Shown here in pieces: positions 590 through 40,699 of a stretch of 64,000 nucleotides of DNA. The first letter of the stretch is position 1. Every line of letters starts with the position of its first letter. The stretch is taken from sequence record NZ_CP049149.1; one strand, given 5' to 3'. The notes under the pieces were generated by a model. The model was not told where the DNA came from and ran no database searches. It saw only the letters and a program-made list of their open reading frames with translations. Source of the DNA: a plasmid. Made by a program: the position numbers and the translations under genes.

Positions 590-1324
590 ATGCCGGGTAC
601 GAAGTACAAAATCACAGAAGAATGGTTACGTCAGCGTTACATGGTTGACCTGATGAGAAAAGAAGACATTGCAGCCGAAGCTGGTTGCAGCAAGGCAAAT
701 ATTGACCGCCTATTGGCCAAGTGGGGGATTAGACGCGGGAGCGCTCGGATATCCGCTACCCCAGCTTGGAACCAAGGCAAAAATAAAAACAACGACGAAC
801 GCATGAAGCGACTCTCCGAAGCCCGGACTGGCGCTGGCAACCCTATGTATGGGAAGACCGCGTGGAATACTGGTCTGCGTGCTGATACCGATGAGCGAGT
901 GTCCGCCGTATCGAAAAAACTGCTCGGCAAAACAATCAGTGCGGATACGAAGGAAAAGCTTGCGGCTGCCAAACGCGGAAAGTTGGGTGATGAAGCGAAC
1001 AACTATAAAGGTGGCGTCATCTTAAAAACTAACGGCTATCTGATGCGGCTGGTTGGTAACAACGGCGTTTCGCAATACGAATACGTTCATCGGTTGATAG
1101 CGAAAGAACGGCTCGGCCGAGCGCTACGTGACAATGAACATGTACACCACATTAACCGCAATACGGTAGACAACGCTCCTGGGAATCTGGTGGCACTTCC
1201 AGAAGACGCCCACATTCGCCTGCATCATGACATGCGTGATGAGGTATGGAGCTGGGAGCGTCAGCGAGAATGGCTCATCGCCAATGGGTATGAGTTCGTG
1301 AAGATTGATGAGGTGACTGCATGA
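590..1324 (+). CDS. Free-standing HNH homing endonuclease with NUMOD-like repeats, inserted inside dnaE.
   Basis: HHINRNTVDNAPGNLVALPEDAHIRLHH is an HNH motif. GKTAWNTG/TPAWNQG repeats are present. It has its own RBS and an upstream AAACAATTTGTTT promoter element. Its stop overlaps the restart of DnaE. Confidence 0.8.
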   Translation: MPGTKYKITEEWLRQRYMVDLMRKEDIAAEAGCSKANIDRLLAKWGIRRGSARISATPAWNQGKNKNNDERMKRLSEARTGAGNPMYGKTAWNTGLRADTDERVSAVSKKLLGKTISADTKEKLAAAKRGKLGDEANNYKGGVILKTNGYLMRLVGNNGVSQYEYVHRLIAKERLGRALRDNEHVHHINRNTVDNAPGNLVALPEDAHIRLHHDMRDEVWSWERQREWLIANGYEFVKIDEVTA

Positions 1325-2490
1325 AAATTACCGGTGTTGTTGAAGAGAGTAATGGCCTGACGCATGAACGAGCCGAAGAAATCTGGAATATGTTTGAAAA
1401 ATCCGGCGCGTATGCCTTTAACAAATCGCACTCTGTTGCTTATTCTTTAATCAGCTATCAGTCCATGTGGCTAAAAACGCACTACCCGGCTGAGTTTTTT
1501 GCTGCTGCGCTCACCATTCTGGGCGAGGACAAACATCAGGGGCTTGTGAAGGATGCGCTGACCTATGGCATTCGCGTACTGCCACCAGATGTGAACATAT
1601 CGTCTAATCGCATTGAGATCCGCACGCTGGAAGATGGCAGCCAGGTTCTTTACGCGCCCTTCTCTGCCATCAAAGGATGCTCTGAGAATGGTTGCCAGGC
1701 CATCATGCGAGCACGAGAAAAGGTCGGTGGCGCATTCGAGTCACTGGCGCAGTTTGAAGAAGCGGTAGAGAAGCGTGCCTGCAATAGCCGAGTACGTGAA
1801 TCGCTGGACAAAGTTGGGGCGTTTGCATCCATTGATCCGGGCAGCTTGCCAGCCACCGCTCCGGAACGTCTGCGCGACCAGGCGGAGCTGATGGGCAATC
1901 TGGTAATCGACGCAGTGAAAGCCTCACGTCCGTTTGAAATGAACCCCAAGCGCTCTGCTGAGGTCAATTTGCTTATGACGCGCATGGCGGCCGAAATGGG
2001 CTTAGGAGATGAGCTGATCCGCCCAAGCATCGGCATTAAACCGAAAATCATGGTCATTCTGGATAACGCGAACGGCAATGATGGGCGTACCGGTTACTTC
2101 ATGGAGAACGGCTATGACGACTTCAAGGCCAAACTGCTTACTGCAGGCGACTTACGCATGGGCGATCTGTATGTCACCGGCGTATGTAAAAAGGTGAAGG
2201 ACAAAGAGAAAGACTACACCAAAGATGAAATCGGCCAGTTCACCGACTTCATGCGTGAAGAGATAAACCTGGTACGTCCGACTTATGTGCTGACGTGTGG
2301 CAGCCGGGCGACATCACTCTTCAATAACAAGAGCAAACCGTCAGATCTGGTTGGTCGTAAAGAGTATCTGCCGGAGCTGGATGTCACCGTCTTCTACGGG
2401 TTTAACCCGAACATTTTGTACTTCCGTCCAGAGGAAGGAGAAAAGCTGGAAGCGATTCTGGCAGAGGTAGCGGAGACTATTAACAAATGA
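1321..2490 (+). CDS. dnaE: DnaE C-terminal part (GAYAFNKSHSVAY finger region onward) fused to a C-terminal uracil-DNA-glycosylase (family 4)-like domain.
   Basis: ERAEEIWNMFEKSGAYAFNKSHSVAYSLISYQSMWLKTHYPAEFFAA matches DnaE residues about 790-830. The last roughly 170 aa (IMVILDNANGNDGRTGYF...YVTGVCK...VLTCGSRA) follow the UDG-superfamily pattern. Confidence 0.75.
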   Translation: MKITGVVEESNGLTHERAEEIWNMFEKSGAYAFNKSHSVAYSLISYQSMWLKTHYPAEFFAAALTILGEDKHQGLVKDALTYGIRVLPPDVNISSNRIEIRTLEDGSQVLYAPFSAIKGCSENGCQAIMRAREKVGGAFESLAQFEEAVEKRACNSRVRESLDKVGAFASIDPGSLPATAPERLRDQAELMGNLVIDAVKASRPFEMNPKRSAEVNLLMTRMAAEMGLGDELIRPSIGIKPKIMVILDNANGNDGRTGYFMENGYDDFKAKLLTAGDLRMGDLYVTGVCKKVKDKEKDYTKDEIGQFTDFMREEINLVRPTYVLTCGSRATSLFNNKSKPSDLVGRKEYLPELDVTVFYGFNPNILYFRPEEGEKLEAILAEVAETINK

Positions 2491-2930
2491 GCAAAGACAC
2501 CACCATGAACGAGGCACAGAAGATTGCACAAGAGCTGGCGAGCATCCCAGATGAGTTTCGAGATAAAGCAGTGGCGGCCACGCTGAAGTCGCAGTTCTGG
2601 GAAATTATTGATTGCCCGGTCACGTTAGATCTGGCGCTCGCGTTCGCCAGACTGGATGGGGTCGACAACACCAGCCGCTTGCGTAAATGCGCCAGAGCTT
2701 TGGCGCTAAAAACACAAGATCCCAAAGCGTGCGGTTATCTGCTGGCGATATACGAAGCTGACGATCCGCAGACGCAGCTGGAAGCATTCAAAACGTTCCG
2801 CGACCGCCTGGTACTTAAGGTGGCCAAAGAGTTTAAGGAGGTGAACAAGATTGGAGATGTACGGCAGTACAGATTAAAACGCCAAACTAGGGTAACTCTG
2901 TCGAATATTTTCGGTAGGAAAGTAGCATAA
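2487..2930 (+). CDS. hypothetical protein (147 aa)
   Basis: ORF is translationally coupled to dnaE (ATGA overlap) and is followed by a rho-independent terminator. Confidence 0.45.
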   Translation: MSKDTTMNEAQKIAQELASIPDEFRDKAVAATLKSQFWEIIDCPVTLDLALAFARLDGVDNTSRLRKCARALALKTQDPKACGYLLAIYEADDPQTQLEAFKTFRDRLVLKVAKEFKEVNKIGDVRQYRLKRQTRVTLSNIFGRKVA

Positions 2931-2931
2931 A

Positions 2932-2960
2932 GAAAAACCCGCCAAATGGCGGGTTCTTTA
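2932..2960. terminator. bidirectional rho-independent terminator (aaaaacccgcc aaat ggcgggttcttt)
   Basis: GC stem flanked by an A-run and a T-run, between convergent genes. Confidence 0.6.
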
Positions 2961-3539
2961 TGCGTAAACTTCTTCTTCGTGGTCATGCGGGCGAAGGAGT
3001 GAGTGCGCGATTGACTCCACTTCCTGAATGTCGCCAAATGCTCTTAAACGCAGGGCAAGGTTCCACTTGTTCAATGTGTACGCGTTACGCACCAGCTCTT
3101 CCCGCGCTTTTGCGTCTTTGCTGTCGAGACGACCGCAATCATTCAACCATTTAGCGACGTCTGACCAGTCCCAGAGTGGAGACTGACCGCTGATGCGCTG
3201 AATTGGGCAAGGGAAATCACCTTTGCCACGTAAACCGTCTTTAAGCAGAGTGATAGCCTGGCGAGTTAAGCCGGAGAGTTGAGCAATATCACTCAAGCCT
3301 ACCAGTGCTGAATCTACTGATTCAACCACTGCGCCGATACCTGCTGTTTCAATATTATCGATCGCCGATTTAATTGCCTCATCTAAAGATTCGGCTTCTC
3401 GGTCAAATTCTACATACACTGAGCTGCCGTAATAACAGATGAGCGCGTCATCGCAACCGTTGGTGTACAGCGCGTCTGCAAGACCTTCAGTCTCCATCTG
3501 CACACCCGATAATGTCAGTGTAAAATTATAGAGTTCCAT
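2958..3539 (-). CDS. hypothetical protein (193 aa)
   Basis: Long ORF with a downstream hairpin. No recognisable motif. Confidence 0.45.
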   Translation of the reverse strand: MELYNFTLTLSGVQMETEGLADALYTNGCDDALICYYGSSVYVEFDREAESLDEAIKSAIDNIETAGIGAVVESVDSALVGLSDIAQLSGLTRQAITLLKDGLRGKGDFPCPIQRISGQSPLWDWSDVAKWLNDCGRLDSKDAKAREELVRNAYTLNKWNLALRLRAFGDIQEVESIAHSLLRPHDHEEEVYA

Positions 3540-3591
3540 TTGGATCTCCTCGTCAAAAAGGCGGTTGCCCGCCTTGGCTAAAACTCCCGAA

Positions 3592-3828
3592 TCAGTCCTT
3601 TCTTGATTTCGGGTTACAGCGGTCGACCAGTCTGCGGATCTGCTTTGCGTGCGTCCCCGGGTCTTTAGGCGTGCTGTTTACGCTCATGGCGTGAGTACGT
3701 CCATGTTCGGCAATTCCGCATTTGATGGTACAGAATGGATGCCCTGTCGCTTCTTCAACGATCCAGCCTTTTTCTTCTGCATAGCGGAGTGCTTCACGTA
3801 CTTCTTTATTAGGGTGCTTCTTGCTCAT
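3592..3828 (-). CDS. hypothetical small basic protein (78 aa)
   Basis: ORF with an RBS. No motif recognised. Confidence 0.35.
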   Translation of the reverse strand: MSKKHPNKEVREALRYAEEKGWIVEEATGHPFCTIKCGIAEHGRTHAMSVNSTPKDPGTHAKQIRRLVDRCNPKSRKD

Positions 3829-4083
3829 CAGCCTCCTAGTGCGCTAATAATAGACAGGGTGTTAACACGAGTCAACACTCTTTGACGATGCCGAGTGTGA
3901 CGGATTAACACCCCCATACAGGCGCATCTACGGCTACGCAGTACTGACATTAGGTTATCAGATTAATCCTCGTTTTTTGTCACTTGCCACCCGACAAACC
4001 TTGTTTTTCTTGTGTCATAAATTTCTGCGCCTGAACGCTTCATGGTAAAATTGATACAAAATAGTAAGCAGGCAATTAACACT

Positions 4084-4515
4084 ATGAGCACCGAAATCTA
4101 CGAAAAAATCATGTCCGATCTGGAGTTTGACCGGGACAATCTTGAAGACGTCTGGCGTCAGCAACCACGCCTTTTAATGGAGTACGGCTCCAGACTCGCC
4201 CAGGCAGAGCGAGAGGTGGCTGATGCGAAGCTGTCACTGGACGCTATTGAGGCAAAGATTTACGACAACGAGCGTAAGAACCTGAGTATGAACGGCATTA
4301 AGTTTAATGAGTCCGTGCTGGAGGCGAAGGTCAGAACCAACCCACAGTATCTTTCCAAACGTCAGAAACTGGATGATGCGCGGTATAAAGCAGACCTTTA
4401 TAAGCACGCTGTGGCCGCCTTTTCACACCGCCGTGACATGATCATCCAGGCATCGAAAATGGCCATCATGGAAATTGAGCGGCTGGGTGCCGAACGCTTC
4501 CACTCTCCCCGTTAA
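4084..4515 (+). CDS. possible UvsY-like recombination mediator
   Basis: Size, helical heptad pattern and position immediately upstream of the gp32-like SSB and near the UvsX/RecA gene resemble T4 UvsY. The similarity is weak and pattern-level only. Confidence 0.3.
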   Translation: MSTEIYEKIMSDLEFDRDNLEDVWRQQPRLLMEYGSRLAQAEREVADAKLSLDAIEAKIYDNERKNLSMNGIKFNESVLEAKVRTNPQYLSKRQKLDDARYKADLYKHAVAAFSHRRDMIIQASKMAIMEIERLGAERFHSPR

Positions 4516-4634
4516 TTTATGCTGGATCGTAAGTAAGTACCGATCTATCATTCATCTCGCTCGAAAGAGCCACGAACAAACGAACGCCCAAAGCGCACAG
4601 CGCCAATGGCCACATAAACAACAAGGAGAAATAC

Positions 4635-5645
4635 ATGTCTAAGTCATTACTTGATCTGCTTAACAAGACTCGTGGCGATATTGCTTCCAAACGTGGCAAT
4701 AACGTTGACCTGACCCGTCTGAAAGACGGCAACAACTTTCTGCGCATTTTTCCGAACAAGGATGACCCGAACGGGGTGTTCTTCCAGACTTTCGGTATGC
4801 ACTACGTTAAGCATCAGAATGAGGAAGGCAAAGAAGTTACCACTGCTTATGTCTGCGAACAGCACACCCACGGCCGCGCTTGCCAACTGTGTGAGATGGT
4901 GATGGAAGGTCGTGTCCGCCACAAAGGCAACAAGGCGATGGAAGAGCGCATTAACTCCATGCGTGCTACCCCGCGTTATCTGGTGAATGGTGTACTGTCT
5001 GCCCGCGAAGACTTTGGCGATGCAGAGAAATGCCAGCTGATCGAGCTGCCGTCCACCGTCTTCGATGACATCTGCAAAGTCATGTCCGAAGACATTGCAG
5101 ACGACATCGGCAACCCGCTGAGCAAGGAAGAAGGCTACGCGTTCCTGATTAAGCGCACCGGCTCTGGTCGTGATACCAAATATGACGTATCGCCGAAGCG
5201 CAAAGTCTACAAAGGCGACATCGCTGAGAAACTCTGGACTACCCAGCATGATCTGATCGCATACGCGAACCAGGCCGACGAGACCCGTCTGCTCTCTACC
5301 GCGCGCACGATGGGTCGCCTGATTGGCATCGCAGCGCCAGCTGCCACCATGTCTGCACCGGCGATTTCGTCTTCTGCTAAATCCGCTGCCGCCGCCCTGC
5401 CGGGTTTCGGCTCCATCACTGGCCATACGGAAGGCGCCGCTGCTGTCGCTACAGCACACACCCCAGCGCCGGAATCCTCCAGCCTGGTTGATGAAGAAAT
5501 TCTGCGTGCCGCGGAAGCTGAGTTTAAGCCAGAACCCGAAGCGGCTAAGGCACCGGAAGCAGCGATCGAACCGACTGCTTCCGCCACCGCTGCTCCGGCC
5601 GAAGAAGGTCTCGATGACCTGCTGGCTGAACTGGACGCTCTGTAA
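4635..5645 (+). CDS. single-stranded DNA-binding protein, T4 gp32-like
   Basis: A His/Cys cluster (CEQHTHGRACQLCEM) is compatible with the gp32 Zn site. There is an Ala/Pro-rich linker and an acidic C-terminal tail (EEGLDDLLAELDAL). A terminator follows. Confidence 0.55.
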   Translation: MSKSLLDLLNKTRGDIASKRGNNVDLTRLKDGNNFLRIFPNKDDPNGVFFQTFGMHYVKHQNEEGKEVTTAYVCEQHTHGRACQLCEMVMEGRVRHKGNKAMEERINSMRATPRYLVNGVLSAREDFGDAEKCQLIELPSTVFDDICKVMSEDIADDIGNPLSKEEGYAFLIKRTGSGRDTKYDVSPKRKVYKGDIAEKLWTTQHDLIAYANQADETRLLSTARTMGRLIGIAAPAATMSAPAISSSAKSAAAALPGFGSITGHTEGAAAVATAHTPAPESSSLVDEEILRAAEAEFKPEPEAAKAPEAAIEPTASATAAPAEEGLDDLLAELDAL

Positions 5646-5663
5646 TCCCATCTCGTAACCAAT

Positions 5664-5690
5664 AAGGCGTCTACGGACGCCTTACTTTTT
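5664..5690 (+). terminator. rho-independent terminator after the SSB gene
   Basis: aaggcgtc tacg gacgcctt followed by a T-run. Confidence 0.6.
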
Positions 5691-5705
5691 GGAAGGAGTG
5701 TACCG

Positions 5706-6650
5706 GTGAATTATCTCTTAGTGGACGGTAACAGCCTGGGCTATTACCACCAACAATCAGACAAGTTGCACAACGGCGAAATGGAAGTTCAGGCAGCGTT
5801 TGGCTTCGTGAAAAACGTTCGTCGTTACGCATCCATCCTACATGCCAGACCGATGATTCTGTGGGATGGCTTTAGCGACAAGCGTCGTGATTTTTATCCG
5901 GAATACAAAGCGAACCGCGATGACGATCCGGATATGAAGAAGATGAAAGAGGGCTTCGCTCTCCAGAAGCCTTACATCATGAAAATGATGACCGCGCTGG
6001 GCGTTAACCAGCTCGTTGCGAAAGACGCAGAAGCGGATGACCTGGCTGGAATGCTGGTCTCGCGCCTGGCTCCGCAGCCCACTGTCGACCACATCTACTT
6101 ACTGACAGGTGATGGCGACTGGCTCCAGCTGGTGCGCGAAAACGTGAGCTGGGTAAGCCTTCGTGAAGACGCCAAGCACAAACAGGTGAACTTCGAACAA
6201 TTCGCAGAGCTAACCGGTCTGCCAACGCCTCGCGCATTTCTGGAAGCGAAAGCGTTACAGGGTGACACATCGGACAACATCAAGGGTGTCGGTGGTATTG
6301 GCGACGGCGGCGCTAAAGAGTTGCTGCATGAATGGGGAAGCGTGGCCGCAATGGTACGCGGTATCAATGACGGCTCCATCGTCATCGACAAAGGCCGCTA
6401 TAAGACCGCATTCAACAAGCTGGCAAAGAACGCGTTTAACGAAAAGACGGGCTGCCGAATGCTGGAGGCGTTCAAACGCAACATGACACTGATGAACCTC
6501 ATCGAAACGAAATTTCCGCCCAGCGAAATCGAGTCCATTAAAGGCGCGCGCGATGTTAAGGCGTTCGAACAGCTTTGCTACGAACTGAACTTCCGCTCGT
6601 TTCTGGAAGACCTGGACGTGTTCATCCTGCCATTTGAAAGGTACTGCTGA
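5706..6650 (+). CDS. 5'-3' exonuclease / flap endonuclease (T4 RNase H / T5 D15 family)
   Basis: N-terminal LVDGNSL, then EADD and GDGD acidic clusters. Length about 314 aa. Confidence 0.75.
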   Translation: MNYLLVDGNSLGYYHQQSDKLHNGEMEVQAAFGFVKNVRRYASILHARPMILWDGFSDKRRDFYPEYKANRDDDPDMKKMKEGFALQKPYIMKMMTALGVNQLVAKDAEADDLAGMLVSRLAPQPTVDHIYLLTGDGDWLQLVRENVSWVSLREDAKHKQVNFEQFAELTGLPTPRAFLEAKALQGDTSDNIKGVGGIGDGGAKELLHEWGSVAAMVRGINDGSIVIDKGRYKTAFNKLAKNAFNEKTGCRMLEAFKRNMTLMNLIETKFPPSEIESIKGARDVKAFEQLCYELNFRSFLEDLDVFILPFERYC

Positions 6651-6916
6651 TGCTGAAATCCATTATCAACGGTGGCGCTACCACCCCAACCATGCTGGCT
6701 AAAGAGATCGTGTTTTGCCACGGCGAGCACGCTGTTGTAGCGCTGCGCAGCATTCTGGGTACTGCCGGTATTTCTGCCACTGAACGTGAGTATGCGTTGT
6801 TGAGTGAGCAGGTTGTGAAAATCCTTGCTCGTATCGCAAAGCACCTCAACCACGACGTAATCAATTTTGACGAAGCCGCTGCTTCGAAGCGTATTAACGA
6901 AACTAAAGGAATCTGA
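6650..6916 (+). CDS. hypothetical protein (88 aa)
   Basis: ORF coupled by ATGA overlap to the exonuclease gene. Confidence 0.35.
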   Translation: MLKSIINGGATTPTMLAKEIVFCHGEHAVVALRSILGTAGISATEREYALLSEQVVKILARIAKHLNHDVINFDEAAASKRINETKGI

Positions 6917-6918
6917 TC

Positions 6919-9264
6919 ATGGCAAAAGGAAAATCCGCTCTTGCGCTGGCACTGAAAAAGAAAATTGGCAGCAACGACGAAATTCAGAAGGTCACGCACT
7001 GGATTGACAGTGGCTACCCTCCGCTGAATAAAGCGATCTCCGGACGTTTCGACGGCGGCTTCCCATGTGGGCGCATCGTTGAGGTATTTGGGCCACCAAG
7101 CGCGGGGAAATGTGTTACCGCAGACACCATGCTGCTGACGGAGCGTGGAATGGTAACAGTGAAAGAACTGTTTGAGATTGAGGGGCACAAAGCAACATGC
7201 ACTACTCGCGATGTAGAGCATAACGTTGGACTCATCAATGAAAATGGCGTGATAGAGAAGACCTCACACCTGACATGGAACAACCGTCGCAAATTCAAGC
7301 GCATTAAGCTGGCATCAGGGGGTTACATCGAGGCTACGTTCCGTCACCCAATTCGTGTGGTTGACGACTTAGGCAATATCGTCTGGCGGTATGCTGAAAA
7401 AATCAGTGTAGGCGACACGATTCCTTCAATGGTTGGCACACATCAATTCGGCGATCAGCACTTGGACGCCAATATCGCAAAACTGATGGGCTATTTAATT
7501 GCTGACGGATACGTGGCCTCTGAAAATTCTGTGCATTTTTCTAACACAGATCCATTCATCAAGGATGAGTACTACCGCCTCATTTCGCTGGTATCAGACA
7601 AGATGCCAGTTACGAGAAAACATAACGGCTCGGAAGACCATGTGCTGTTTAGCAAAGAGGTGCGTTCGCTGCTTTTTAAAGAATATGGTCTGGAGTATGA
7701 GAAAGCTGCTGGCAAGCAGGTTCCGTTGAGTGTGCGTCGCGCCAATAGCGAGGCTCAAATTGCATTCCTTCGCGGCTACTTTGAGCTGGAATGCCACGTC
7801 AATGATGGTCGCTGCATTGAGGTTGTGAGCGCGAGTGGGCTGCTGCTACAGCAAATTCGCCTCATGCTCCTGAATCTGGGGATTACGTCAACTATCTCTG
7901 AAAAACACGTCGCAGGTTATAAAAACATATATTACCGGCTGTCATTCAGTGGCTCTAACTACGACCTTTTCCTGTCAACGATTGGGTTCGAGTCTCCGGC
8001 TCGTTTAGCAGTGGCAACCAAACGGGACATTAGTTTTGACCGCACTTATTTAGGCTACGTTCCGCACATCAGCGGCTTAGTGAAATCACTCTACGAGTCA
8101 CTCACCAAGACCTCTCGTAAAGACTACGTTCTGGTAGATCACGTTATTGGCCGCGGCGATCGTGTCGGAATAGACAAACTACGAGAAATCTATGTCTCCT
8201 TCATTGGCAGAAAGAATCGTTTTAACGAGCATCTGTTTGCACAACTGGCAGCGGTAATTGACTCTAACTTGTTCTACGACGAAGTCGTGGCTATTGAGGA
8301 AGGTGAAGCACCAACGTTCGACGTAGCGATGCCGGAAACACACTCTTTCTGGTCTAACGGGATTATCAGCCACAACACATTCCTCGCGACGGCTGCAATG
8401 GTGTCAGCACAGAAACAGGATGGTCTGGCCGTATTCCTCGACCACGAAAACAGTTTTGACGTTGGCCTGGCAGTGGCTAACGGTCTGAACGCAGATGAAG
8501 ATGACGGCCAGTGGGTCTACAAACAGCCTGACACCTTCGAAGATTCGGTTGAGCTTATTGGCACCATCCTCAAGCTGGTGCGCGATGAAGAGTTAATTCC
8601 GGAAGACGCACCAATTTGTATCGTGGCCGACTCGCTGGCGTCTATGGTGCCGAACTCCAAAGCCGAGAAGTTCGACAAGATGGCGGATGGCACCGCGAAG
8701 GACAAAGACCAGCTGAATATGAACGACAATACGGCGCTGGCGCGCGCGACGAGTGCGAACTTCCCTACTCTGGCGCTCTGGGCGAGAAAATATAACGCCT
8801 GCATCATTTTCTTGAATCAGGTGCGTACAAAGATTGGTGTGATGTTTGGCGATCCGACAACGTCTCCGGGCGGCGACTCGCCAAAGTTTTACGCGTCAGT
8901 GCGCATCCGTCTGGGTGCATCTGTCATGAAGGACGGCAAAGACAAGATTGGGCAAGACGTGGGTGCCGAGTGCATCAAAAACAAAGTGGCGACGCCATAC
9001 GGCAAATGCTCATGGAAGTTTTACTTCGACCCGAGCCGCGGTCTCGACGTCATCGAGTCTTTAGTTGAGTACATGCTGGAAGAAGGATACCTGCCAAAGA
9101 ACGCCAGCGGCCGAGTAGAGATTGGCGACAAGAAGTTCACCAAATCGCAGATCGTCGACATGTACCGCGAGAAGCCCCTTTCGGAGATCATCGCAGCGCT
9201 GCAAGCGATTGACGAAAGACGTGCCAAAGAAACGGCACCAGAAATCGAAGAAGAAGTTGAGTAA
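6919..9264 (+). CDS. recA: RecA/UvsX-family recombinase interrupted by an intein in the Walker A motif
   Basis: Exteins GRIVEVFGPPSAGK|TFLATAAM, FLDHENSFD, KQPDTFEDSVELI and VADSLASMV align with RecA GRIVEIYGPESSGKTTL, FIDAEHALD, SQPDTGEQALEI and VDSVAAL. The ORF is 781 aa against an expected ~359 aa. Confidence 0.85.
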   Translation: MAKGKSALALALKKKIGSNDEIQKVTHWIDSGYPPLNKAISGRFDGGFPCGRIVEVFGPPSAGKCVTADTMLLTERGMVTVKELFEIEGHKATCTTRDVEHNVGLINENGVIEKTSHLTWNNRRKFKRIKLASGGYIEATFRHPIRVVDDLGNIVWRYAEKISVGDTIPSMVGTHQFGDQHLDANIAKLMGYLIADGYVASENSVHFSNTDPFIKDEYYRLISLVSDKMPVTRKHNGSEDHVLFSKEVRSLLFKEYGLEYEKAAGKQVPLSVRRANSEAQIAFLRGYFELECHVNDGRCIEVVSASGLLLQQIRLMLLNLGITSTISEKHVAGYKNIYYRLSFSGSNYDLFLSTIGFESPARLAVATKRDISFDRTYLGYVPHISGLVKSLYESLTKTSRKDYVLVDHVIGRGDRVGIDKLREIYVSFIGRKNRFNEHLFAQLAAVIDSNLFYDEVVAIEEGEAPTFDVAMPETHSFWSNGIISHNTFLATAAMVSAQKQDGLAVFLDHENSFDVGLAVANGLNADEDDGQWVYKQPDTFEDSVELIGTILKLVRDEELIPEDAPICIVADSLASMVPNSKAEKFDKMADGTAKDKDQLNMNDNTALARATSANFPTLALWARKYNACIIFLNQVRTKIGVMFGDPTTSPGGDSPKFYASVRIRLGASVMKDGKDKIGQDVGAECIKNKVATPYGKCSWKFYFDPSRGLDVIESLVEYMLEEGYLPKNASGRVEIGDKKFTKSQIVDMYREKPLSEIIAALQAIDERRAKETAPEIEEEVE
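7111..8376 (+). mobile_element. intein (422 aa) with a LAGLIDADG homing-endonuclease domain, inserted after the P-loop Lys
   Basis: Starts with Cys (CVTADTMLL, block A). TFRH is block B. Two LAGLIDADG motifs (LMGYLIADGY, FLRGYFELE). Ends ...IISHN followed by Thr at +1. Confidence 0.85.
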
Positions 9265-9268
9265 ACAA

Positions 9269-9293
9269 AGGGCGTCCAATGGACGCCTTTTTA
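9269..9293 (+). terminator. rho-independent terminator after recA
   Basis: agggcgtcc aat ggacgcc followed by ttttt. Confidence 0.65.
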
Positions 9294-9400
9294 TTTTCAT
9301 TATTATCACCATTAAGAAAACAATTTGTTTTCTAACTCAAAAGACAAAGTGACAGTGCAACGCCACCAGTGGCGACCCGCTGTAAATCAGGACAAAAGCA

Positions 9401-9820
9401 ATGAAGAACGTGAAAAAGCTATATATCGCGGCAAACGCTGCGCTGGACGTAGTTGATAAGGAGATTGCAGAGGGTTATGCGCAGCCAGATTGGGCGCATC
9501 AGTTAAGAGAGGCGATAGCGGAAATGAATACGCCGGAGCCAGCGGAAGATGAAGCTGACTGGCAGCGATTTATTCGAATGTATGCAGAAGAGATTGGCCC
9601 GACTCCTACAGCGGAGCAGGCGATGTTGCTTAAGTACTTTAAAGAAGCTGGCGACGAACTGCCGGTGGACGATACCCCGTACTGGTTTCACGCCGCCTGG
9701 CGAAAAACAGACGTGCTCTTCAGCCGGTCGCTGGGCAGCAAAGACATGGTTGTCTGGCACCTGATGCACATCGATGAGGCCATTGACCGCACGCTGGAGA
9801 AGTTCTTTCAACCAACCTGA
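9401..9820 (+). CDS. hypothetical protein (139 aa)
   Basis: ORF preceded by the AAACAATTTGTTT promoter element. Confidence 0.4.
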   Translation: MKNVKKLYIAANAALDVVDKEIAEGYAQPDWAHQLREAIAEMNTPEPAEDEADWQRFIRMYAEEIGPTPTAEQAMLLKYFKEAGDELPVDDTPYWFHAAWRKTDVLFSRSLGSKDMVVWHLMHIDEAIDRTLEKFFQPT

Positions 9821-9886
9821 ACAGGATGTTGTGCGCCGCATGGCGCACGTTAAAATAGATAATCACTTACCAACAAGGAGGAGCAC

Positions 9887-10162
9887 ATGAGAATTTTGGT
9901 TCGCATCTCAGCCAGTACTGACTATGACGTTTATCCTTTGTTTATGGTTAGGTGCGACGGTTTGAACGACGAAGAGATTCAGGCGGCTATACAGCGAAAC
10001 CTTGTCGAATATACCGGTCAGTCAGCGGAAACTGTGTTTGTGGATGAAGATGGGATCTGCTGGCATGACGGCTGCTGCTGGTACATCGATGAGACAAGAG
10101 CCATCAGCGACGACGATGCTGCCCACCTTGAGCGCATATTGGGCATCAGCACGTTTGACTAA
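9887..10162 (+). CDS. hypothetical protein (91 aa)
   Basis: ORF with a strong RBS (aaggagg). Confidence 0.4.
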   Translation: MRILVRISASTDYDVYPLFMVRCDGLNDEEIQAAIQRNLVEYTGQSAETVFVDEDGICWHDGCCWYIDETRAISDDDAAHLERILGISTFD

Positions 10163-10202
10163 TATTTACAGGTTCATTTGTATAAGTTAGCATTTACCTA
10201 TT

Positions 10203-10382
10203 ATGAGCAATTTAACAAACACCCTTTTACTTATCGTGTCGGTCTCTTTTTTGGTCGACTGTCTTTTCATCGGAGCCATCAGAAAGGCATTAGCCCCTGT
10301 TAATGGCACGGTGGTTAAAATGCTGGCGATCATGCTTGCCTTTGACTCGGCGCTTGATGTAATCAGTGGAGTGGCAGCATGA
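10203..10382 (+). CDS. small hydrophobic membrane peptide (59 aa), not in the ORF track
   Basis: MSNLTNTLLLIVSVSFLVDCLFIGAI... The stop overlaps the start of the next gene (ATGA). Confidence 0.3.
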   Translation: MSNLTNTLLLIVSVSFLVDCLFIGAIRKALAPVNGTVVKMLAIMLAFDSALDVISGVAA

Positions 10383-10717
10383 AAACACGGCTTGCTCTGG
10401 CTGTTTTGCTCTTATCCCATTCCATTTCTGCTGACACTCGCATTTATGAGTGCGAGATGTCTGTGGCCGAAACAAAAAAAGACACGCTGACAAACGTCGT
10501 TAAAGCGCCCTATGGAGCGATGGTTGTGGATAGCGGGGAGCAATTTTACATCGTTCGCGATGACCGCGTTTTGTCCTCTCCTTACCTTACAAGACGCGAC
10601 AACAAACTGACCGGCGTCGGTGAGGACAAGCTTGTTTACAACAAATCAGGTGATAGCTACGGCGTTCACGCAAAGGACGCCAGTTACCTTTTCGATGACT
10701 GCAAGGAGGTTGGTTAA
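10379..10717 (+). CDS. secreted protein with a signal peptide (112 aa)
   Basis: MKTRLALAVLLLSHSISA looks like a signal sequence. Confidence 0.4.
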   Translation: MKTRLALAVLLLSHSISADTRIYECEMSVAETKKDTLTNVVKAPYGAMVVDSGEQFYIVRDDRVLSSPYLTRRDNKLTGVGEDKLVYNKSGDSYGVHAKDASYLFDDCKEVG

Positions 10718-10929
10718 TGGCGATGACACTGACAGGTCTGGAAATCGAAAAAACGAGCGGCTACTGGCGCGCCAAAGGATTCAGAAAGTCCGATGTGATG
10801 GAGCGCCTGGAGCGTGAAGACGGCTTTATAGTCCACCAGCGTCGCGAATGGCGCATGTACGATCCGGAAAGCGGAAAGCTCACATCCAAAGCACAAACCC
10901 TCTGGGGGCTGCTGAAAAAAATCATCTGA
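10717..10929 (+). CDS. hypothetical protein (70 aa)
   Basis: Translationally coupled ORF. Confidence 0.3.
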   Translation: MAMTLTGLEIEKTSGYWRAKGFRKSDVMERLEREDGFIVHQRREWRMYDPESGKLTSKAQTLWGLLKKII

Positions 10930-10989
10930 TCCATTATCCACTATGGGAAGAACCACTTCCCATAGTGGTTATCTTGCCCGTAATAGCAA

Positions 10990-11475
10990 CATCATAGCGC
11001 CTACCGCTGACAGCATACGTTTGTCTAAATTCGCCCCATTTTTACCGCTGACAGCATATCTTTTAGTCGCTCAATTTACCGCTGACAGCATACGTTATGA
11101 CCACAAGACAAGGTTTACCGCTCACAGCATATCCAAACATCACCTCATACCGCTGGCAGCATATCGACGTTTTTCGCCTCTGTGGGCGCTCTATCAGGAC
11201 GAGAAAAACAATCAAGTTAGTGAGTGCAAACCCTTATTTCATGCGGCTTGCGGGGTTAGTGACCACTGGGGAAGTTGTCGCGGGAAATGGGATCGAAGAG
11301 GCGCGCAGACCAGATAACGGCGGGCTAATGAGCAAAATCGCCCGCTGATATCATACATTTTCTAAAAATTACCGCTCACAGCATATCTTTTTGCCGCTGA
11401 CAGCATACTTAATGTGAAAAATACCGCTGACAGCATATCTTGTACCGCTGGTAGCATACGTTTTACCGCTGACAG
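10990..11475. repeat. iteron array downstream of repA (incA-like). Ten copies of a ~19-bp repeat TTACCGCTGACAGCATAYS in two clusters.
   Basis: Repeats read directly at about 10993, 11043, 11078, 11113, 11148, 11367, 11389, 11421, 11443 and 11463. Confidence 0.85.
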
Positions 11476-11479
11476 CATA

Positions 11480-12583
11480 TCAAAGGAGTTTCAGGCTGTT
11501 GGAGAGAATCTCGATCAGCTTGATGTTTTCGGGCGTCAGGTTCTGCGATAACTCGGTGATTTTGTTCACGAGGTTTTGTTTTGCATCGACACCAGAAGAC
11601 GTGCTCTCGACCGGCTTATCCGGAAGCGCGGGCATTTCCTCTTTGACCGAAGAGGCTTTGAGCTTGGGATTGCGGCTGTGGATCTGAATGTAAATCGAGC
11701 GGCCACGCTTAATCTCGCTGTATTCGAGATAGCCCAATTCCTCCAGCGTTTTTAAGCCGTTGCGGATGGTCTGATTCTGCGAGCTGACGTTACGACTACT
11801 CAAATTAAGTCTGGCTCGAAGCCTTGCCAGCGATACTGGTGCCGGTTTGGCTGGAAGACTTTCGATGAACGTATACAGCGCCTGGGCGGTCTCTTTGCGC
11901 GGCAGCTTGTTAATGACTTTTAGCTGGAGCAGCACTTTGTGGTCGAAGCGATAGAGTTCGGCCAGCTTCGGCTCTGCGTGAAAGATGATGGAGTCTTTTT
12001 GCTCGTTGTAATCGACGCTGTTCACCAGGTGAACCATCAGGAGCGAGATTTTGTTCGAGCCGTCGACGTTCTTTTCTTCATACGTGCGCTGGAAAGAGAG
12101 CGTGGTGCGCATGATCTTCAGGAGGCTGTTGGTGAGCCTGTCACGCAGCGTCTTGCGGATCTGCGACGACGGATAGCCGCAGAATTTGGCGAACTTGGTA
12201 ATGCTCAACTCGACGCGGCCACTCGGCTCCCCGTACTCGGCCAGAGAGCGAACGACGCCGACCCACGTTTTAAAATCGTGATCCATATCCAGGCGTGGAC
12301 CTGTTATCTTGATGTCGGAATACCCTTCTGAACGAGCAACCTCCAGCTGAACCAGTTCTTTTGAGGCGTCGATCTCATTAGGTCTGTTCCGCTTGCTGTT
12401 CTTTGTTCCCTTTAGCGTGGGCACGAACAAACCAAGCCTCATCAACGCTATAGGCTGAACAGTATTGTTGCTGTTTGGAACAAGATCGCCTGTGTATAGT
12501 TCGAGGGATTCTTCTTCAAAATTATCTATACTGTCGTCTAACACATTGTTTTTGGTTTCTTTTTTCTTTCGAGTGGGCATGTT
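11480..12583 (-). CDS. repA: plasmid-type replication initiator RepA (iteron-binding)
   Basis: Flanked on both sides by iterons. Size about 367 aa. Genomic architecture is identical to the P1/F-type replicon. The start is taken at MPTRKKKE. Confidence 0.7.
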   Translation of the reverse strand, partial: NMPTRKKKETKNNVLDDSIDNFEEESLELYTGDLVPNSNNTVQPIALMRLGLFVPTLKGTKNSKRNRPNEIDASKELVQLEVARSEGYSDIKITGPRLDMDHDFKTWVGVVRSLAEYGEPSGRVELSITKFAKFCGYPSSQIRKTLRDRLTNSLLKIMRTTLSFQRTYEEKNVDGSNKISLLMVHLVNSVDYNEQKDSIIFHAEPKLAELYRFDHKVLLQLKVINKLPRKETAQALYTFIESLPAKPAPVSLARLRARLNLSSRNVSSQNQTIRNGLKTLEELGYLEYSEIKRGRSIYIQIHSRNPKLKASSVKEEMPALPDKPVESTSSGVDAKQNLVNKITELSQNLTPENIKLIEILSNSLKLL

Positions 12584-12595
12584 GACACCTTTCCG

Positions 12596-12705
12596 CTTCC
12601 AACCGCTGACAGCATACGTTATTTGCCGTTGGCAGCATACCAAAAACAGATGGCAGCATATCGCTTACCGCTGACAGCATATCGCTTACCGCTGACAGCA
12701 TACGC
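12596..12705. repeat. iteron array upstream of repA (incC/origin-like), five copies
   Basis: Same CCGCTGACAGCATA core at 12601, 12624, 12644 (partial), 12664 and 12685. Confidence 0.85.
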
Positions 12706-12740
12706 GAATACCCGTTGAGGCCAGGCGTGGCGCGGTCTGC

Positions 12741-12815
12741 GAGGATCGGGGATCTCTTTTGATCTATATAGGGATCTATACGGGATCTAATTAATAGGAT
12801 CTACCCTGTGGATAA
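12741..12815. promoter_or_regulatory. origin-associated GATC cluster (6 GATC, GGATCTA heptamers) plus a DnaA box TGTGGATAA (12807-12815)
   Basis: gaggatcggggatctcttttgatctatatagggatctatacgggatctaattaataggatctaccctgtggataa read directly. Confidence 0.7.
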
Positions 12816-12902
12816 TGTGAATAACTAAAACAGGCGTTTGCGAACATTGCCGTACTTCATGCGCTATGTTTGCGGCGAGCAACAATAACGTGAATTAAGA
12901 AT

Positions 12903-34407: not shown

Positions 34408-37400
34408 TTAAATCCTTCCTCCAACCCCTTTAAATTTTTCGATAAACGCCCCAATTTTTTGGAATACGGTCTGCTTTTTCGTTTTGTACTGAGGATTCAG
34501 TGGACTGAGTTTTGGTAGCGTCTCATTTAACTCCGTCCCATTTTCGGTAGCATATTCCCGTTTGAGTGATGTACGGATATAGCGCCTTGCCGCCTCTTCA
34601 TTGAGGTTTTCTTCCTTAATCAACGCTTCCGCTTCCTGTTGCTGTTCACGCTGAGCATAGGTAAAGAATGCATCAATGATACTGGCCTTATCCGGCATGT
34701 CATCAAGGTTAGTTTGCTGAATAAAGTCAACAATCAGACCTTCTTTGGCACGGTTGCCCAGACTTGACCGGATTAAGCGTCGGACCTCTTCAGTCAGGGC
34801 TTCTTTACCCTTTTTCTGACGGTTGTGGTCAAAAATCAGGCCCAGAATGTAGTCCAGGTTAATCTCTTGCGACTTGAGCAGGTCAATTTCAAACACCACG
34901 TCATCCCAGTCCGTGGTTGATGTATCCCTGTCGTTTGCTGCTTTTTCACGTCGCTGCCAGTCCCGGATATCATTGTAAGCTGAGCGGTAGTCCTGAACTT
35001 TACGTTCGGCAGGGAGGCGAATGGTTTGTAATTCAGCAAATTTTTCATCATCCACGTAGTGCTCTGCTTTAAAGGTTTCTACCGCTTCCGGGTCACTAAT
35101 ATCAACCTTCTGCAGGGCTTTCAGCGTGGCAAATTCATCGTAGTTTTGCAGGATGTTTTCTGCCCGCAGATATTCACCAAACAGTTTGACGAAGGCTTTT
35201 TTCTCTTTTTCACTGTCGATACTGGCAGGGTCAGGGAAGCGCTGCTCCAGCTCCGAAACAATAGACATAAAACCTCGTTTAGCTTCGCCGGTTGCCGCAT
35301 CGCTAAAGCCCTGCATGTACTCTTCGTAGCTTTTTTCCAGTACCACATTCTTGGTGTTTTTGTCGCCAAAAAGTGTAATGGCATCAATGGTGGGACGCTC
35401 CAGGTCCCTGAAAGTCACGATATTGCCGAAGGTTTTGGTTGCATCATAGATACGGTTGGTGCGTGAGAATGCCTGCATCAGACCGTGATAACGCAGGTTT
35501 TTGTCAACGAACAGAGTATTGAGAGTCGGAGCATCAAAGCCAGTCAAGAACATTCCCACCACGATGAGAAGGTCAATATCCTGATTTTTCACTCGTTGAG
35601 CTAAATCGCGGTAGTAGTTCTGGAAACCGTTACTGTCGGTGCTGAAATTGGTTTTAAAGTGATTGTTATAGTCATCAATGGCTGAATCCAGGAATTCCTT
35701 TGCGCTGCTGTTCATTGCACTGGTATCAAAACTTTCGTCGGTAATATCACCAATGGCGCTTTGCTCTTCATTAGCAGCAAAAGAGAAGATAGTTGCAACC
35801 CGAAGGCGTTTATAGCTGCCTGATTTTTTTGCTGCTTCTTCCTGTAGTACTTTAAACGTCGAGTAATAAGCTTTTGCCGCTTCCACACTGCTAACTGCTA
35901 ACATGGCGTTAAAGCCCTTAGCTCCCGGGAAGGTTCGGTGCGTTTTCTGACGGAAGTTATTGAGAATGTATTGCGTTATTTCCTGGATACGCAGTGGGTG
36001 TAAAAATGCCTGTTGGTTTTCAGCCGCGCTGAGTTTTTTCTCATCAGTTTCCGTTTCAAGAGACTTAAACTGTGGGCGGACATCGTTATAGTCCACCTTA
36101 AACTTCAGCACTTTTTCATCACGAATCGCATCAGTAATGACGTAAGAATGTAATTCACGCCCGAAGACGCTGGCGGTGGTTTCTGCCCCCAGTGCATTTT
36201 CCGGGAAAATAGGCGTACCAGTAAAACCAAACTGATAAAAGCGTCTGAATTTCTTTTTGAGGTTTTTCTGGGCCTCACCAAACTGGCTGCGGTGACACTC
36301 ATCAAAGATAAACACCACCTGCTGCTGATAGACGGGCAGGTCAGCTTCGGCTTTCATCAGATTATTGAGTTTCTGAATGGTTGTGACGATAATTTTGTTA
36401 TCGTCCTTATCCAGGTTTCTTCTGAGGCCTGCTGTATTATCCGAACCATTGACACTGTCCGGAGAGAAGCGCTGATACTCCTTCATGGTCTGGTAATCGA
36501 GGTCTTTCCTGTCGACCACGAAGAAGACTTTATCGATAAAGTCCAGCTCAGTAGCCAGACGTGCGGCCTTAAAGCTGGTCAGGGTTTTTCCTGACCCTGT
36601 GGTATGCCAGATAAATCCACCGCTTTCGGGTTTTGACCAGTTCTTCGCTTTAAAAGAGCTGTTGATTTTCCAGAGAATGCGCTCGGTGGCGGCAATCTGA
36701 TAGGGGCGCATGACGAGCAGCGTCTGGCTGCTGTCAAACACGCTGTAATTAAACAGAACATTCAGCAGAGTATGCTTCTGGAAGAAAGTGGCGGTAAAGT
36801 CCTTCAGGTCCTTAATCAGAGTGTTATCCGACTTCGCCCAGTTCATGGTGAAATCAAAGCTGTTTTTATCCCGCTTAGTGGTACTGGCAAAGTACCGGGT
36901 ATCGGTTCCGTTAGATATCACAAACAGTTGCAGGTATTTAAACAGAGAGTTGTCGCTGTTAAAGCTTTCCTTACTGTAACGGTGTATCTGGTTAAAGGCT
37001 TCACGAATCGCCACGCCGCGCTTTTTGAGTTCGATTTGCACCAGCGGCAGGCCGTTGACCAGAATCGTAACATCATAACGGTTAGCGTGTGAGCCGGTCT
37101 GTTCAAACTGCTGAATGACCTGCACCTTATTGCGCAGCAGGTTCTTTTTATCTATCAAATAGATGTTTTCCAGACGACCATCATCAAACGTAAAATCACA
37201 GATATAGTCGATATGGATTTTACGGGTTTTGTCCAGGCTGCTGTCACTGGGGCTGTCCAGATATTGCTCTGCGAAGCGCCGCCATTCACTTTCGTTAAAC
37301 ACCACACCATTAAGACGCTGAAGCTGGTCCCGCACATTCGCCAGCATCGCAGTCGGTGACTTAACGGAGATAAACTCATAACCCTGATTAAGAAGATCCT

Positions 37401-37524
37401 GAATCAGCGCCCGCTCAAGGTCCGATTCGCTCTGGTAGCTGTCACCGGTATCCATAACTTTTGTGTATTTATCAAGGACGATAAAGTTATTGGATTCAGC
37501 AATAGTGTGTGTTTGATGAGTCAT
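34408..37524 (-). CDS. hsdR: Type I restriction enzyme R subunit (Type IC, EcoR124-like; 1038 aa)
   Basis: SF2 motifs TGSGKTLTS and [10 protein letters not shown]. The ~1038-aa length is what I recall for EcoR124 HsdR (from memory). Downstream of hsdM-hsdS on the same strand. Confidence 0.85.
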
Positions 37525-37645
37525 AGCGCATCCTTTGTGCCGCCTGGCAAGGGCCGGAAGGGAGTTAAGAGTGACTTCCGGCGTGTAAAAAATAGTCTAT
37601 ATACTGACCGGGTGTTAAGGTGGCCCGATCGGTAGCAATGGTCAA

Positions 37646-38914
37646 TTAATTACTGACAGTTTCAGGTTTCGGGAAACTGAAAAGTAAATCACGGTAGTAT
37701 TCGTATTGTTTCTGGCGCAACTCGATTTCACGCGGGAGACCTTCAGTGATGGAGTTGGTCAGTGTGTCGAATTTATCCAGAATCCGAACGATTTCAGACT
37801 GGATGGCAAGGGATTTTTCCGGATTGTCCGGGCAGGGGATTGGGATTTTCAGTTTGTTTAAAACGGATTGTGTTTGGCTTGGTACTCCTCCTGCTTGGTT
37901 CATTTCGCCAAGGCCAACCGTCGTTAAGAAGTAGTAAAGATACTTTGGCCTAATTTGTGCTTCATCAATTTCCGTATAAAAAATGGTGTCAACGGTCCAG
38001 AATGGAACATCGATGAAAAATAAATTACCAAGCGAGCCTTTTCTCGGAATTAAGACTGAAGGCTTATTATAGGCATAGGTATCTACATATCGCATGATTC
38101 CACCTGAACCGTAAACAGGGAACTCGCCTTCGCTGAGAGATTTATGATCCTTGCCATTTCTGATGCGAGCCAAATCACTCAATGGCAACCACTCAACCTC
38201 AACCCCATCCAGCAATTTTTCCAGATAAATAGGTTTTTCCTGCTCCTCATCAAAACTCAGCAACTGGTCGCGATAGTAGTTGTACTGCTTTTTGCGCATG
38301 GTAAGTTCAGCTGTAAGTTCAGCTGTAAGTTCAGCTGTAAGTGCAGTAAACTTATCCAGAATCCGGACGATTTCAGACTGGATAGCAAGGGACTTGTCCG
38401 GTTTATTCGGACAAGGTATAGGGATTTTGAATCCTCCCATTACTGCTGAGTTCAAGTTGTTGATGGTTGAGCTATTCAACATTTCATCGAGATATTTTTG
38501 AAAAATATCACTTGTTAAAACGTGAAATAAATAACGCGGATTTAATTTTTCATCGCATCTGACAACACCCATAAATCCGCCAAAGTAGTAGTCAATATCT
38601 GATTCAATGTAAGCAACTTTTCCAACATGTTCACGGCTACCACTTGCTGCGCTTATCAGTATGTCGTCCTTATATAGTTTTTGCGAATCCTTTACTTTGG
38701 TGTCAAACTTCACCAGTTTGACATCATTTAAATTTAAACAATTACTAGACAAAGTGATATTGTTAGCACGAAGGACCCTGTAACCTTGACCATCTGCGCT
38801 TTCATTCGATTTGCTGTAAGTTAAACCACGTATATATTTCGCGACTTCTCCCAGAGTCTTCCACTCAACAACAACTCCATCTAGCAATTTGTCTAGATAA
38901 CTCAGCTTGCTCAT
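37646..38914 (-). CDS. hsdS: Type I restriction specificity subunit with central TAEL x3 repeat
   Basis: Duplicated conserved regions ([14 protein letters not shown] twice). Two TRDs. Central [13 protein letters not shown] encoded by 12-bp tandem repeats at about 38290-38340. Confidence 0.85.
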
Positions 38915-40467: not shown

Positions 40468-40699
40468 TTTGTATCCTGTTGTATGATTCTTAAGTACTGT
40501 TATTGGCCCGATTTTATCGCAATTTCATATTGATGACAGGCTTTGTATGTCATACGTTGCACTGAGAGTTCGTTTGCCCGGTTGTGTAGCCAACACTCTT
40601 TCAGTCAGGCCAGTAGAAACGTTGTGCTGACGATAAATACTGAAGCCCCAATACTATCGGGGCTGAACGTTCAGTCGGTGAGAATTTCTTCATCCGTAT

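Follow-up and report, generated by a model that had tools for sequence, protein, structure and literature searches.

Inteins inserted in the phosphate-binding loop (P-loop) of ATPases are known from several protein families. The position between the Lys and the Thr of the Walker A motif (K|T) has been called the classic P-loop intein insertion (PMC5050341) and is used by inteins in RFC, MCM and DnaB (PMC4760082). In the archaeal recombinase RadA, the inteins of P. horikoshii and T. sibericus occupy the P-loop and are mini-inteins (PMC5790916), and the ATPase of RadA with a P-loop intein was reported to be compromised before splicing (PMC8529194). Here, we analyse a stretch of 64,000 nucleotides of the plasmid record NZ_CP049149.1 (one strand, hereafter referred to as the window; coordinates are window positions), in which the gene for a RecA/UvsX-like recombinase is interrupted in the Walker A loop by an intein. 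We conclude that this element is very probably a class 1 intein with an active, or very recently active, LAGLIDADG endonuclease, lodged in the recombinase of a Cronobacter sakazakii phage-plasmid.

Intein structure and insertion site

The precursor is encoded by one uninterrupted open reading frame, in which the following parts were located.

6919-9264, + strand: precursor open reading frame, RecA/UvsX-like recombinase with intein, 781 amino acids (aa), ~87 kDa
6919-7110, + strand: N-extein, 64 aa, with the Walker A segment GPPSAGK at its end (7090-7110, aa 58-64)
7111-8376, + strand: intein, 422 aa, 47.7 kDa, with a LAGLIDADG homing endonuclease of the two-motif type set into its Hint domain
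7111-7113, + strand: Cys1 of the intein (aa 65 of the precursor)
7111-7149, + strand: intein block A, CVTADTMLLTERG
7318-7359, + strand: intein block B with Thr76-x-x-His79 (TFRH; T140 and H143 in the precursor), kept in relatives
7480-7515, + strand: LAGLIDADG motif 1, KLMGYLIADGYV (LMGYLIADG), acidic Asp retained (D132 of the intein, aa 196 of the precursor)
7765-7800, + strand: LAGLIDADG motif 2, FLRGYFELECHV (LRGYFELEC), acidic Glu retained (E226 of the intein, aa 290 of the precursor)
8311-8355, + strand: intein block F, PTFDVAMPETHSFWS; blocks F and G are nearly invariant among RecA P-loop inteins
8356-8376, + strand: intein block G, NGIISHN
8371-8376, + strand: terminal His-Asn of the intein (aa 485-486)
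8377-9264, + strand: C-extein, 295 aa and stop codon, beginning with Thr+1 (aa 487) and comprising the rest of the RecA core

The splicing residues are all present (C65, T140-x-x-H143, H485-N486 and T487) and conserved in relatives, and Thr+1 serves in splicing as the nucleophile and in GPPSAGKT as the Walker A Thr. The intein contains three cysteines in addition to Cys1. Profile searches detected the Pfam domains Intein_splicing (PF14890; E value 2e-11, 47 bits, cut-off 35.8) and LAGLIDADG_3 (PF14528; E values 4e-18 to 7.6e-19, above the curated cut-off), together with the TIGR01445 model (36 bits, cut-off 24.5). In an AlphaFold model of the precursor (mean predicted local distance difference test score, pLDDT, of 74), the endonuclease region (aa 180-370) mostly scored between 77 and 95. 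When the insert was compared with PDB structures by Foldseek, it matched the TliVMA intein with its endonuclease (E value 1.5e-21), PI-PfuI and PI-PkoII (top entries 7qss, 1dq3 and 2cw7), in agreement with a PDB sequence search of the intein, which returned PI-PkoII, VMA inteins and PI-PfuI. This set of intein blocks and domains is far beyond chance. The sequence identifies the element as a class 1 intein at the classic P-loop K|T site, between the Walker A residues K64 and T487, and it is almost certainly functional.

Removal of the intein (residues 65-486) in silico left an extein with a computed length of 359 aa and a mass of 39.2 kDa. The Pfam RecA profile (PF00154) matched the precursor in two stretches (E value 8e-36, above the curated cut-off), and after this removal the two halves fused into a single match (E value 6.5e-42, 144 bits, cut-off 27). 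The extein also matched phrog_97, 'UvsX-like recombinase' (E value 2.5e-89), and the extein part of the structural model retrieved dozens of bacterial RecA structures from the PDB with Foldseek. The score of the extein with the bacterial RecA equivalog model TIGR02012 was 130-155 bits, below the cut-off of 325. The extein is a phage-type RecA-family recombinase and not a cellular RecA orthologue.

The empty site is known from relatives. SSU5 gp60 (358 aa), which is intein-less, is 95% identical to the extein and aligns with the precursor with one clean gap of 422 residues, and both this protein and its intein-less counterpart in C. sakazakii pCS1 read GPPSAGK|TFLATAAM without interruption. These results bear out the initial annotation of the window, which had proposed a 422-aa intein with blocks A and B, two LAGLIDADG motifs and a terminal His-Asn followed by Thr, all of which proved correct to the residue, inserted between GPPSAGK and TFL of Walker A, exactly where the alleles of SSU5 gp60 and pCS1 are empty. 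The phage RecA/UvsX-like host that it had named agrees with the PF00154 and phrog_97 matches and with the adjoining genes for a gp32-like single-stranded DNA-binding protein (SSB) and a 5'-3' exonuclease. The products that it had predicted, of ~39 and ~47 kDa, correspond to calculated masses of 39.2 kDa for the putative spliced extein and 47.7 kDa for the intein. Cys1 and the terminal Asn, the loss of which by sequence error it had mentioned as a possible refutation, are both intact. Its description of the P-loop as a known intein hot-spot is in line with the literature, in which K|T is the classic P-loop insertion (PMC5050341) and P-loop sites in RecA and RadA are established.

A free-standing endonuclease gene, as implied by some labels of the NCBI Prokaryotic Genome Annotation Pipeline (PGAP), was ruled out: the insert continues the reading frame of the host gene, lacks start and stop codons of its own and contains Hint blocks. 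Searches of the window by tblastn with the intein and by a scan for LAGLIDADG motifs found no second intein, and no intein domain was found in its 805-aa ribonucleotide reductase.

Probable footprint of homing

Intein DNA at least 99% identical to that of the window was found in 158 PLSDB plasmids from five genera. The C-extein was 80-90% identical in 404 of 415 records, and its best match (97.7%) was the intein-less pCS1. The window intein and its counterparts on E. coli and Klebsiella plasmids are separated by two changes in 1266 bases, both of them silent, and the exteins of these counterparts are 82-86% identical to that of the window; the synonymous divergence (dS) between the window and the Klebsiella or E. 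coli copy was 0.007 for the intein and 0.8-1.2 for the extein. In 150-base sliding steps through positions ~4100-12900, the window was 98-100% identical to pCS1 in nearly all steps, the exceptions being the intein itself and the step at 8300-8449, which holds the 3' tract defined below.

The extent of the exchanged DNA was mapped by a coordinate-based comparison of the extein bases of the window with those of pCS1 (intein-less) and of the Senftenberg plasmid CP074286.1 (intein-bearing), the sole Salmonella plasmid in PLSDB that carries the intein.

6919-7089: identical to pCS1 at 171/171 bases and to Senftenberg at 140/171
7090-7110 (last 21 bases before the intein): identical to pCS1 at 16/21 and to Senftenberg at 21/21
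8377-8419 (first 43 bases after the intein): identical to pCS1 at 30/43 and to Senftenberg at 43/43
8420-8449: identical to pCS1 at 30/30 and to Senftenberg at 29/30
8450-9180: identical to pCS1 at 727/731 and to Senftenberg at 630/731

Two tracts follow from these counts.

7090-7110, + strand: 5' co-conversion tract, with 5 differences from pCS1 (7095-7107) and none from the intein-bearing Senftenberg, Eco263 and Cyrano alleles
8377-8419, + strand: 3' co-conversion tract, possibly extending to 8449, with 13 differences from pCS1 and none from Senftenberg; beyond it, pCS1 matches the window at 757/761 bases

Eighteen of the 25 extein differences between the window and pCS1 thus lie within the 64 bases closest to the intein, whereas an even spread would place about 1.6 there, and over these bases the window is identical to the Senftenberg intein-bearing allele (64/64). 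Judged by this comparison, the tracts, 16-21 bp long on the upstream side of the intein and 43-73 bp long on the downstream side, are identified as products of co-conversion, the pattern expected from double-strand break repair at the insertion site. The same footprint was obtained for the Senftenberg allele and the intein-less SSU5, with 168/171, 18/21, 35/43 and 716/731 identical bases (extracted locus L009 of CP074286.1, positions 1103-3445, against L001 of SSU5, positions 2800-3876). This indicates that a second, independent homing event probably took place in an SSU5-like Salmonella backbone.

Selection on the intein and its host gene

Ratios of nonsynonymous to synonymous substitution (dN/dS) were obtained from more divergent intein alleles, by comparing the window with Cyrano, E. 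coli FMU073332 and E. albertii. The values were 0.03-0.10 for the N-terminal Hint part (0.03-0.17 for the Hint regions overall), 0.11-0.15 for the endonuclease part and 0.014-0.056 for the exteins of the intein-bearing alleles. Since dN/dS is low in all three parts, the intein and the host gene are both under purifying selection.

Distribution and annotation

The gene was matched by 543 plasmids in PLSDB, 246 of which carry the intein, and 238 near-full-length copies among the plasmids have an open reading frame. The counts by genus (records with the intein / records matching the gene) were as follows.

Escherichia: 123 / 224
Klebsiella: 71 / 79
Enterobacter: 41 / 91
Citrobacter: 6 / 23
Shigella: 2 / 8
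Salmonella: 1 / 44
Yersinia: 0 / 63
Cronobacter: 0 / 7

The exact 781-aa protein has been deposited in NCBI and UniRef for Cronobacter sakazakii, on 22 contigs, under the names 'recombinase RecA' or 'LAGLIDADG family homing endonuclease'. Intein-less alleles are present on more than 340 Cronobacter contigs, against these 22 with the intein-bearing protein, a ratio that fits a recent invasion by the intein. An assembly chimera was ruled out by the presence of the protein on 22 contigs and the occupation of the site in 246 plasmids. For the whole gene, no record of the phage and plasmid collections exceeded 93.7% identity. A 59-base pattern across the junction had no exact match in the species-representative genomes, and a 44-base pattern from the intein matched only a Kluyvera contig. 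The intein is already known at the database level, because it is annotated in many records (many PLSDB copies are named 'intein-containing recombinase RecA') and because PHROG 9666 exists as a profile of the entire intein-bearing protein. The same protein is elsewhere labelled 'LAGLIDADG family homing endonuclease', 'recombinase RecA', 'hint domain-containing protein' or 'hypothetical protein', and the endonuclease label masks its recombinase function in public annotations.

Some copies depart from the common pattern. In E. albertii NZ_CP034165.1 (extracted locus L006, positions 1309-3100), the gene is unannotated. Its intein keeps an intact frame and is 91.9% identical in DNA to that of the window, but an IS911-family insertion cuts the C-extein short, so that the intein survives in a dead host gene. 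Between E. albertii and Cyrano, the discordance is the reverse of that described above, with a dS of 0.24 for the intein versus 0.02-0.08 for the extein. Partial intein copies are found in NZ_CP074043.1 (H96) and CP057895.1 (H97): one record has intein bases 79-1091 at two separate places and the other has only the last 243 bases, and these copies may be decayed or rearranged.

Proposed mechanism and alternative explanations

That the protein splices, that the intein cleaves DNA and that the precursor lacks ATPase activity are inferred from what is known of the intein family, and we propose the following pathway. Translation would yield an 87-kDa precursor which, because its P-loop is split, should be unable to bind ATP properly. 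Cys1 would form a thioester at the K64-C65 bond, this thioester would be attacked by Thr+1, and cyclisation of Asn422 would free a 48-kDa intein; an O-to-N shift would then restore GPPSAGKT in a 39-kDa recombinase, the junction of which would read GPPSAGKTFLATAAM. The freed intein would act as a site-specific endonuclease, cutting the intein-less recA of related phage-plasmids in the same cell, and repair from the intein-bearing copy would paste in the intein with a few dozen flanking bases. In the event recorded in the window, an E. coli/Salmonella-type allele would have supplied a pCS1-like backbone with the intein together with 16-21 bp of its upstream flank and 43-73 bp of its downstream flank.

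Several observations weigh against this pathway. At 18 of the 64 flanking positions, pCS1 does not match the intein-bearing alleles; cutting of such a site would require an enzyme that tolerates wobble changes, unless the actual recipient was not identical to pCS1. The last residue of LAGLIDADG motif 2 is Cys instead of Gly, and Thr+1 is a rarer nucleophile than Cys or Ser. The AlphaFold model was built from only 12 sequences, and its splice junctions are of low confidence. Finally, our literature search found no paper describing this intein or its splicing or cleavage.

The off-consensus motif 2 (LRGYFELEC), and the fact that cleavage is deduced from family likeness, would also suit an intein that still splices but has a dead endonuclease, and that reached the pCS1-like backbone when phage-plasmids sharing a cell underwent ordinary homologous recombination; related phage-plasmids are indeed mosaic elsewhere, the best match over 30000-54000 covering 67% of that region. 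However, ordinary recombination would have had to place its exchange points no further than 21 and 73 bases from the ends of the intein, where the flanks are only 82-86% identical to those of the donors, and the short-tract pattern recurs in a second backbone. The dN/dS of the endonuclease (0.11-0.15) and the spread of one near-identical allele across five genera also argue against a dead enzyme, and we consider this explanation improbable. Still less credible, with hardly any weight in our assessment, is the view that the intein is decaying and has lost splicing, which would make this recA a pseudogene in effect. The IS911-cut C-extein of one E. albertii copy and the partial copies H96 and H97 point in that direction. 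However, Cys1, the TxxH motif, block F, the His-Asn pair and Thr+1 are all intact, the frame is open in the 238 near-full-length copies, and the dN/dS of the Hint regions (0.03-0.17) and of the extein (0.014-0.056) are not those of a pseudogene.

An active or recently active homing intein might, in addition, benefit its carrier, either as a conditional splicing switch responding to redox state, metal or temperature, or as a weapon against intein-less competitors, whose recA it would cut. It has been argued that P-loop inteins are selectively retained (PMC4760082) and RadA splicing is conditional (PMC5790916); the cysteines of the window intein (Cys1 and three others) and its presence in 246 of 543 related plasmids can be read in the same way. 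However, the sequence does not require such a benefit, selfish homing fully accounts for the patchy distribution and the conversion tracts, and intein-less groups persist, with the intein in 0 of 63 Yersinia and 1 of 44 Salmonella records. We therefore regard an added benefit as unlikely, and retain a class 1 intein with an active or very recently active endonuclease as the explanation of the locus.

Genomic context

The recombinase gene lies in a module with the following neighbouring features.

4635-5645, + strand: gp32-like SSB
5663-5684, + strand: strong terminator-like hairpin after the gp32-like gene
5706-6650, + strand: 5'-3' exonuclease
6650-6916, + strand: small open reading frame (orf88), ending 3 bases ahead of the recA start
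9267-9291, + strand: terminator-like hairpin with 11 pairs and a T run, right after the recA stop (a pattern match only)

The hairpins after the gp32-like gene and after recA suggest that exo, orf88 and recA form one transcription unit, ending at the 9267-9291 hairpin; 16 terminator-like sites were counted in 3900-9900, versus 7.3 expected from shuffled sequences. The same gene order (SSB, exonuclease, small open reading frame, recA) is found in Salmonella phage SSU5, Escherichia phage Cyrano and C. sakazakii pCS1, and the window further encodes a Rep3-type plasmid initiator, an SbcC/Rad50-like ATPase, a ribonucleotide reductase and a type I restriction system. Because of this shared module order and these genes, the window is assigned to an SSU5/pHCM2-type phage-plasmid, of which it is a part. 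The exact match of the recombinase protein gives Cronobacter sakazakii as the source.

The C-terminal tail of the gp32-like SSB (5200-5650, + strand) is rich in Ala, Pro and Glu, has a G+C content of 0.61 versus ~0.50 nearby and varies more among relatives (57-78% identity) than any other part of the module. An open reading frame of 334 aa on the opposite strand (4647-5651) overlaps the gp32-like gene and was taken to be a putative shadow open reading frame. The type I restriction-modification cluster (34408-41868, - strand) comprises HsdR (1038 aa, 34408-37524) and then three long open reading frames (37646-41868). Over the region 30000-54000, pCS1 is the best match and covers only 67%, at 93.8% identity, and the defence cargo is therefore more variable than the recombination module.

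Implications

Taken by itself, the element is ordinary: the intein class is well understood, the kind of site is well known and the protein is already labelled publicly. What is added here is a base-resolution footprint of a recent homing into a Cronobacter backbone, with evidence that one allele is spreading through phage-plasmids of enterobacteria. The homing record is unusually clean, with pCS1 as a near-isogenic empty allele, both tracts readable and a second event in a Salmonella backbone. The near-identical intein in Escherichia, Klebsiella, Enterobacter, Citrobacter, Shigella, Salmonella and Cronobacter is a trace of earlier sharing of cells and exchange of DNA by phage-plasmids of different genera, and phage-plasmids matter for the spread of resistance and virulence. 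Pairs of intein-bearing and intein-less plasmids could serve as a handy experimental homing system in enterobacteria.

A bolder proposal, to which we would give only a small chance, is that one intein allele is now sweeping the SSU5/pHCM2-type phage-plasmids of at least six enterobacterial genera, possibly as an exclusion weapon, as a conditional control of splicing, or as both. If so, the cutting of the recombinase gene of co-resident intein-less relatives would amount to interference between competing phage-plasmids, and the split P-loop could make recombinase activity hinge on conditional splicing.

Comparison with known inteins

The Mtu-type RecA (M. tuberculosis, with the intein PI-MtuI) resembles the window protein in being a RecA host whose intein also has a LAGLIDADG-type endonuclease region (a weak match, E value 8e-5). 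However, the window protein scored 98 bits with the Mtu-type intein-containing RecA profile NF007072, the cut-off of which is 1024. On this profile, the window P-loop maps near position 70 and the extein runs on to ~254, at about which point the Mtu RecA intein begins; the window insertion thus lies ~180 profile positions upstream. The +1 residue is Cys in Mtu RecA, versus Thr in the window protein. The distinction from the mycobacterial RecA sites made in the initial annotation therefore holds for the Mtu type, on the basis of this mapping.

The archaeal RadA inteins interrupt the ATPase P-loop of a homologous recombinase family (RecA/RadA/Rad51). However, they are mini-inteins without an endonuclease, whereas the window intein is full-size, with LAGLIDADG motifs and signs of current mobility. 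The inteins of archaeal RFC small subunit (site a), aIF2, mycobacteriophage TerL1-a, DnaB-b and MCM-a share the same Walker A place, between the invariant Lys and the nucleophilic Thr (PMC5050341 and PMC4760082), and the best NCBIfam matches of the window intein were the intein-containing RFC and IF-2 models (E values 1e-17 to 1e-22), with the alignment starting from GPPxxGK. However, the hosts are unrelated, the similarity is low and the scores are far below the family cut-offs.

When 5.8 billion proteins were searched, the closest inteins beyond the SSU5 group proved to lie in other RecA proteins and shared 27-45% identity with that of the window. In these (P0007/P0009, P0011, P0012, P0013, P0015, P0017 and P0018), the insertion point is identical (..SGK|C...HN|T..), but the exteins are distant and the endonuclease regions of P0011, P0015, P0017 and P0018 are shortened or degenerate. 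A family of RecA P-loop inteins exists, since these nearest outside relatives all sit at the same RecA site. One of the host RecA proteins, P0011 (GCA_027484465.1; extracted locus L010, positions 3001-5166), has a RecA_C domain and is encoded on a 550-kb assembly contig; the first LAGLIDADG region of its intein is largely deleted, and it looks like a decaying family relative.

The same intein at the same site is found in the SSU5/pHCM2-type group, in Cyrano CYRAN_55, Klebsiella CP034055.1, E. coli NZ_CP067400.1 and PHROG 9666, with 99.8% DNA identity to the Klebsiella and E. coli copies and 96% protein identity to that of Cyrano. The window differs from all of these in its extein backbone, which is of the Cronobacter pCS1 type, the PLSDB members of which are all intein-less.

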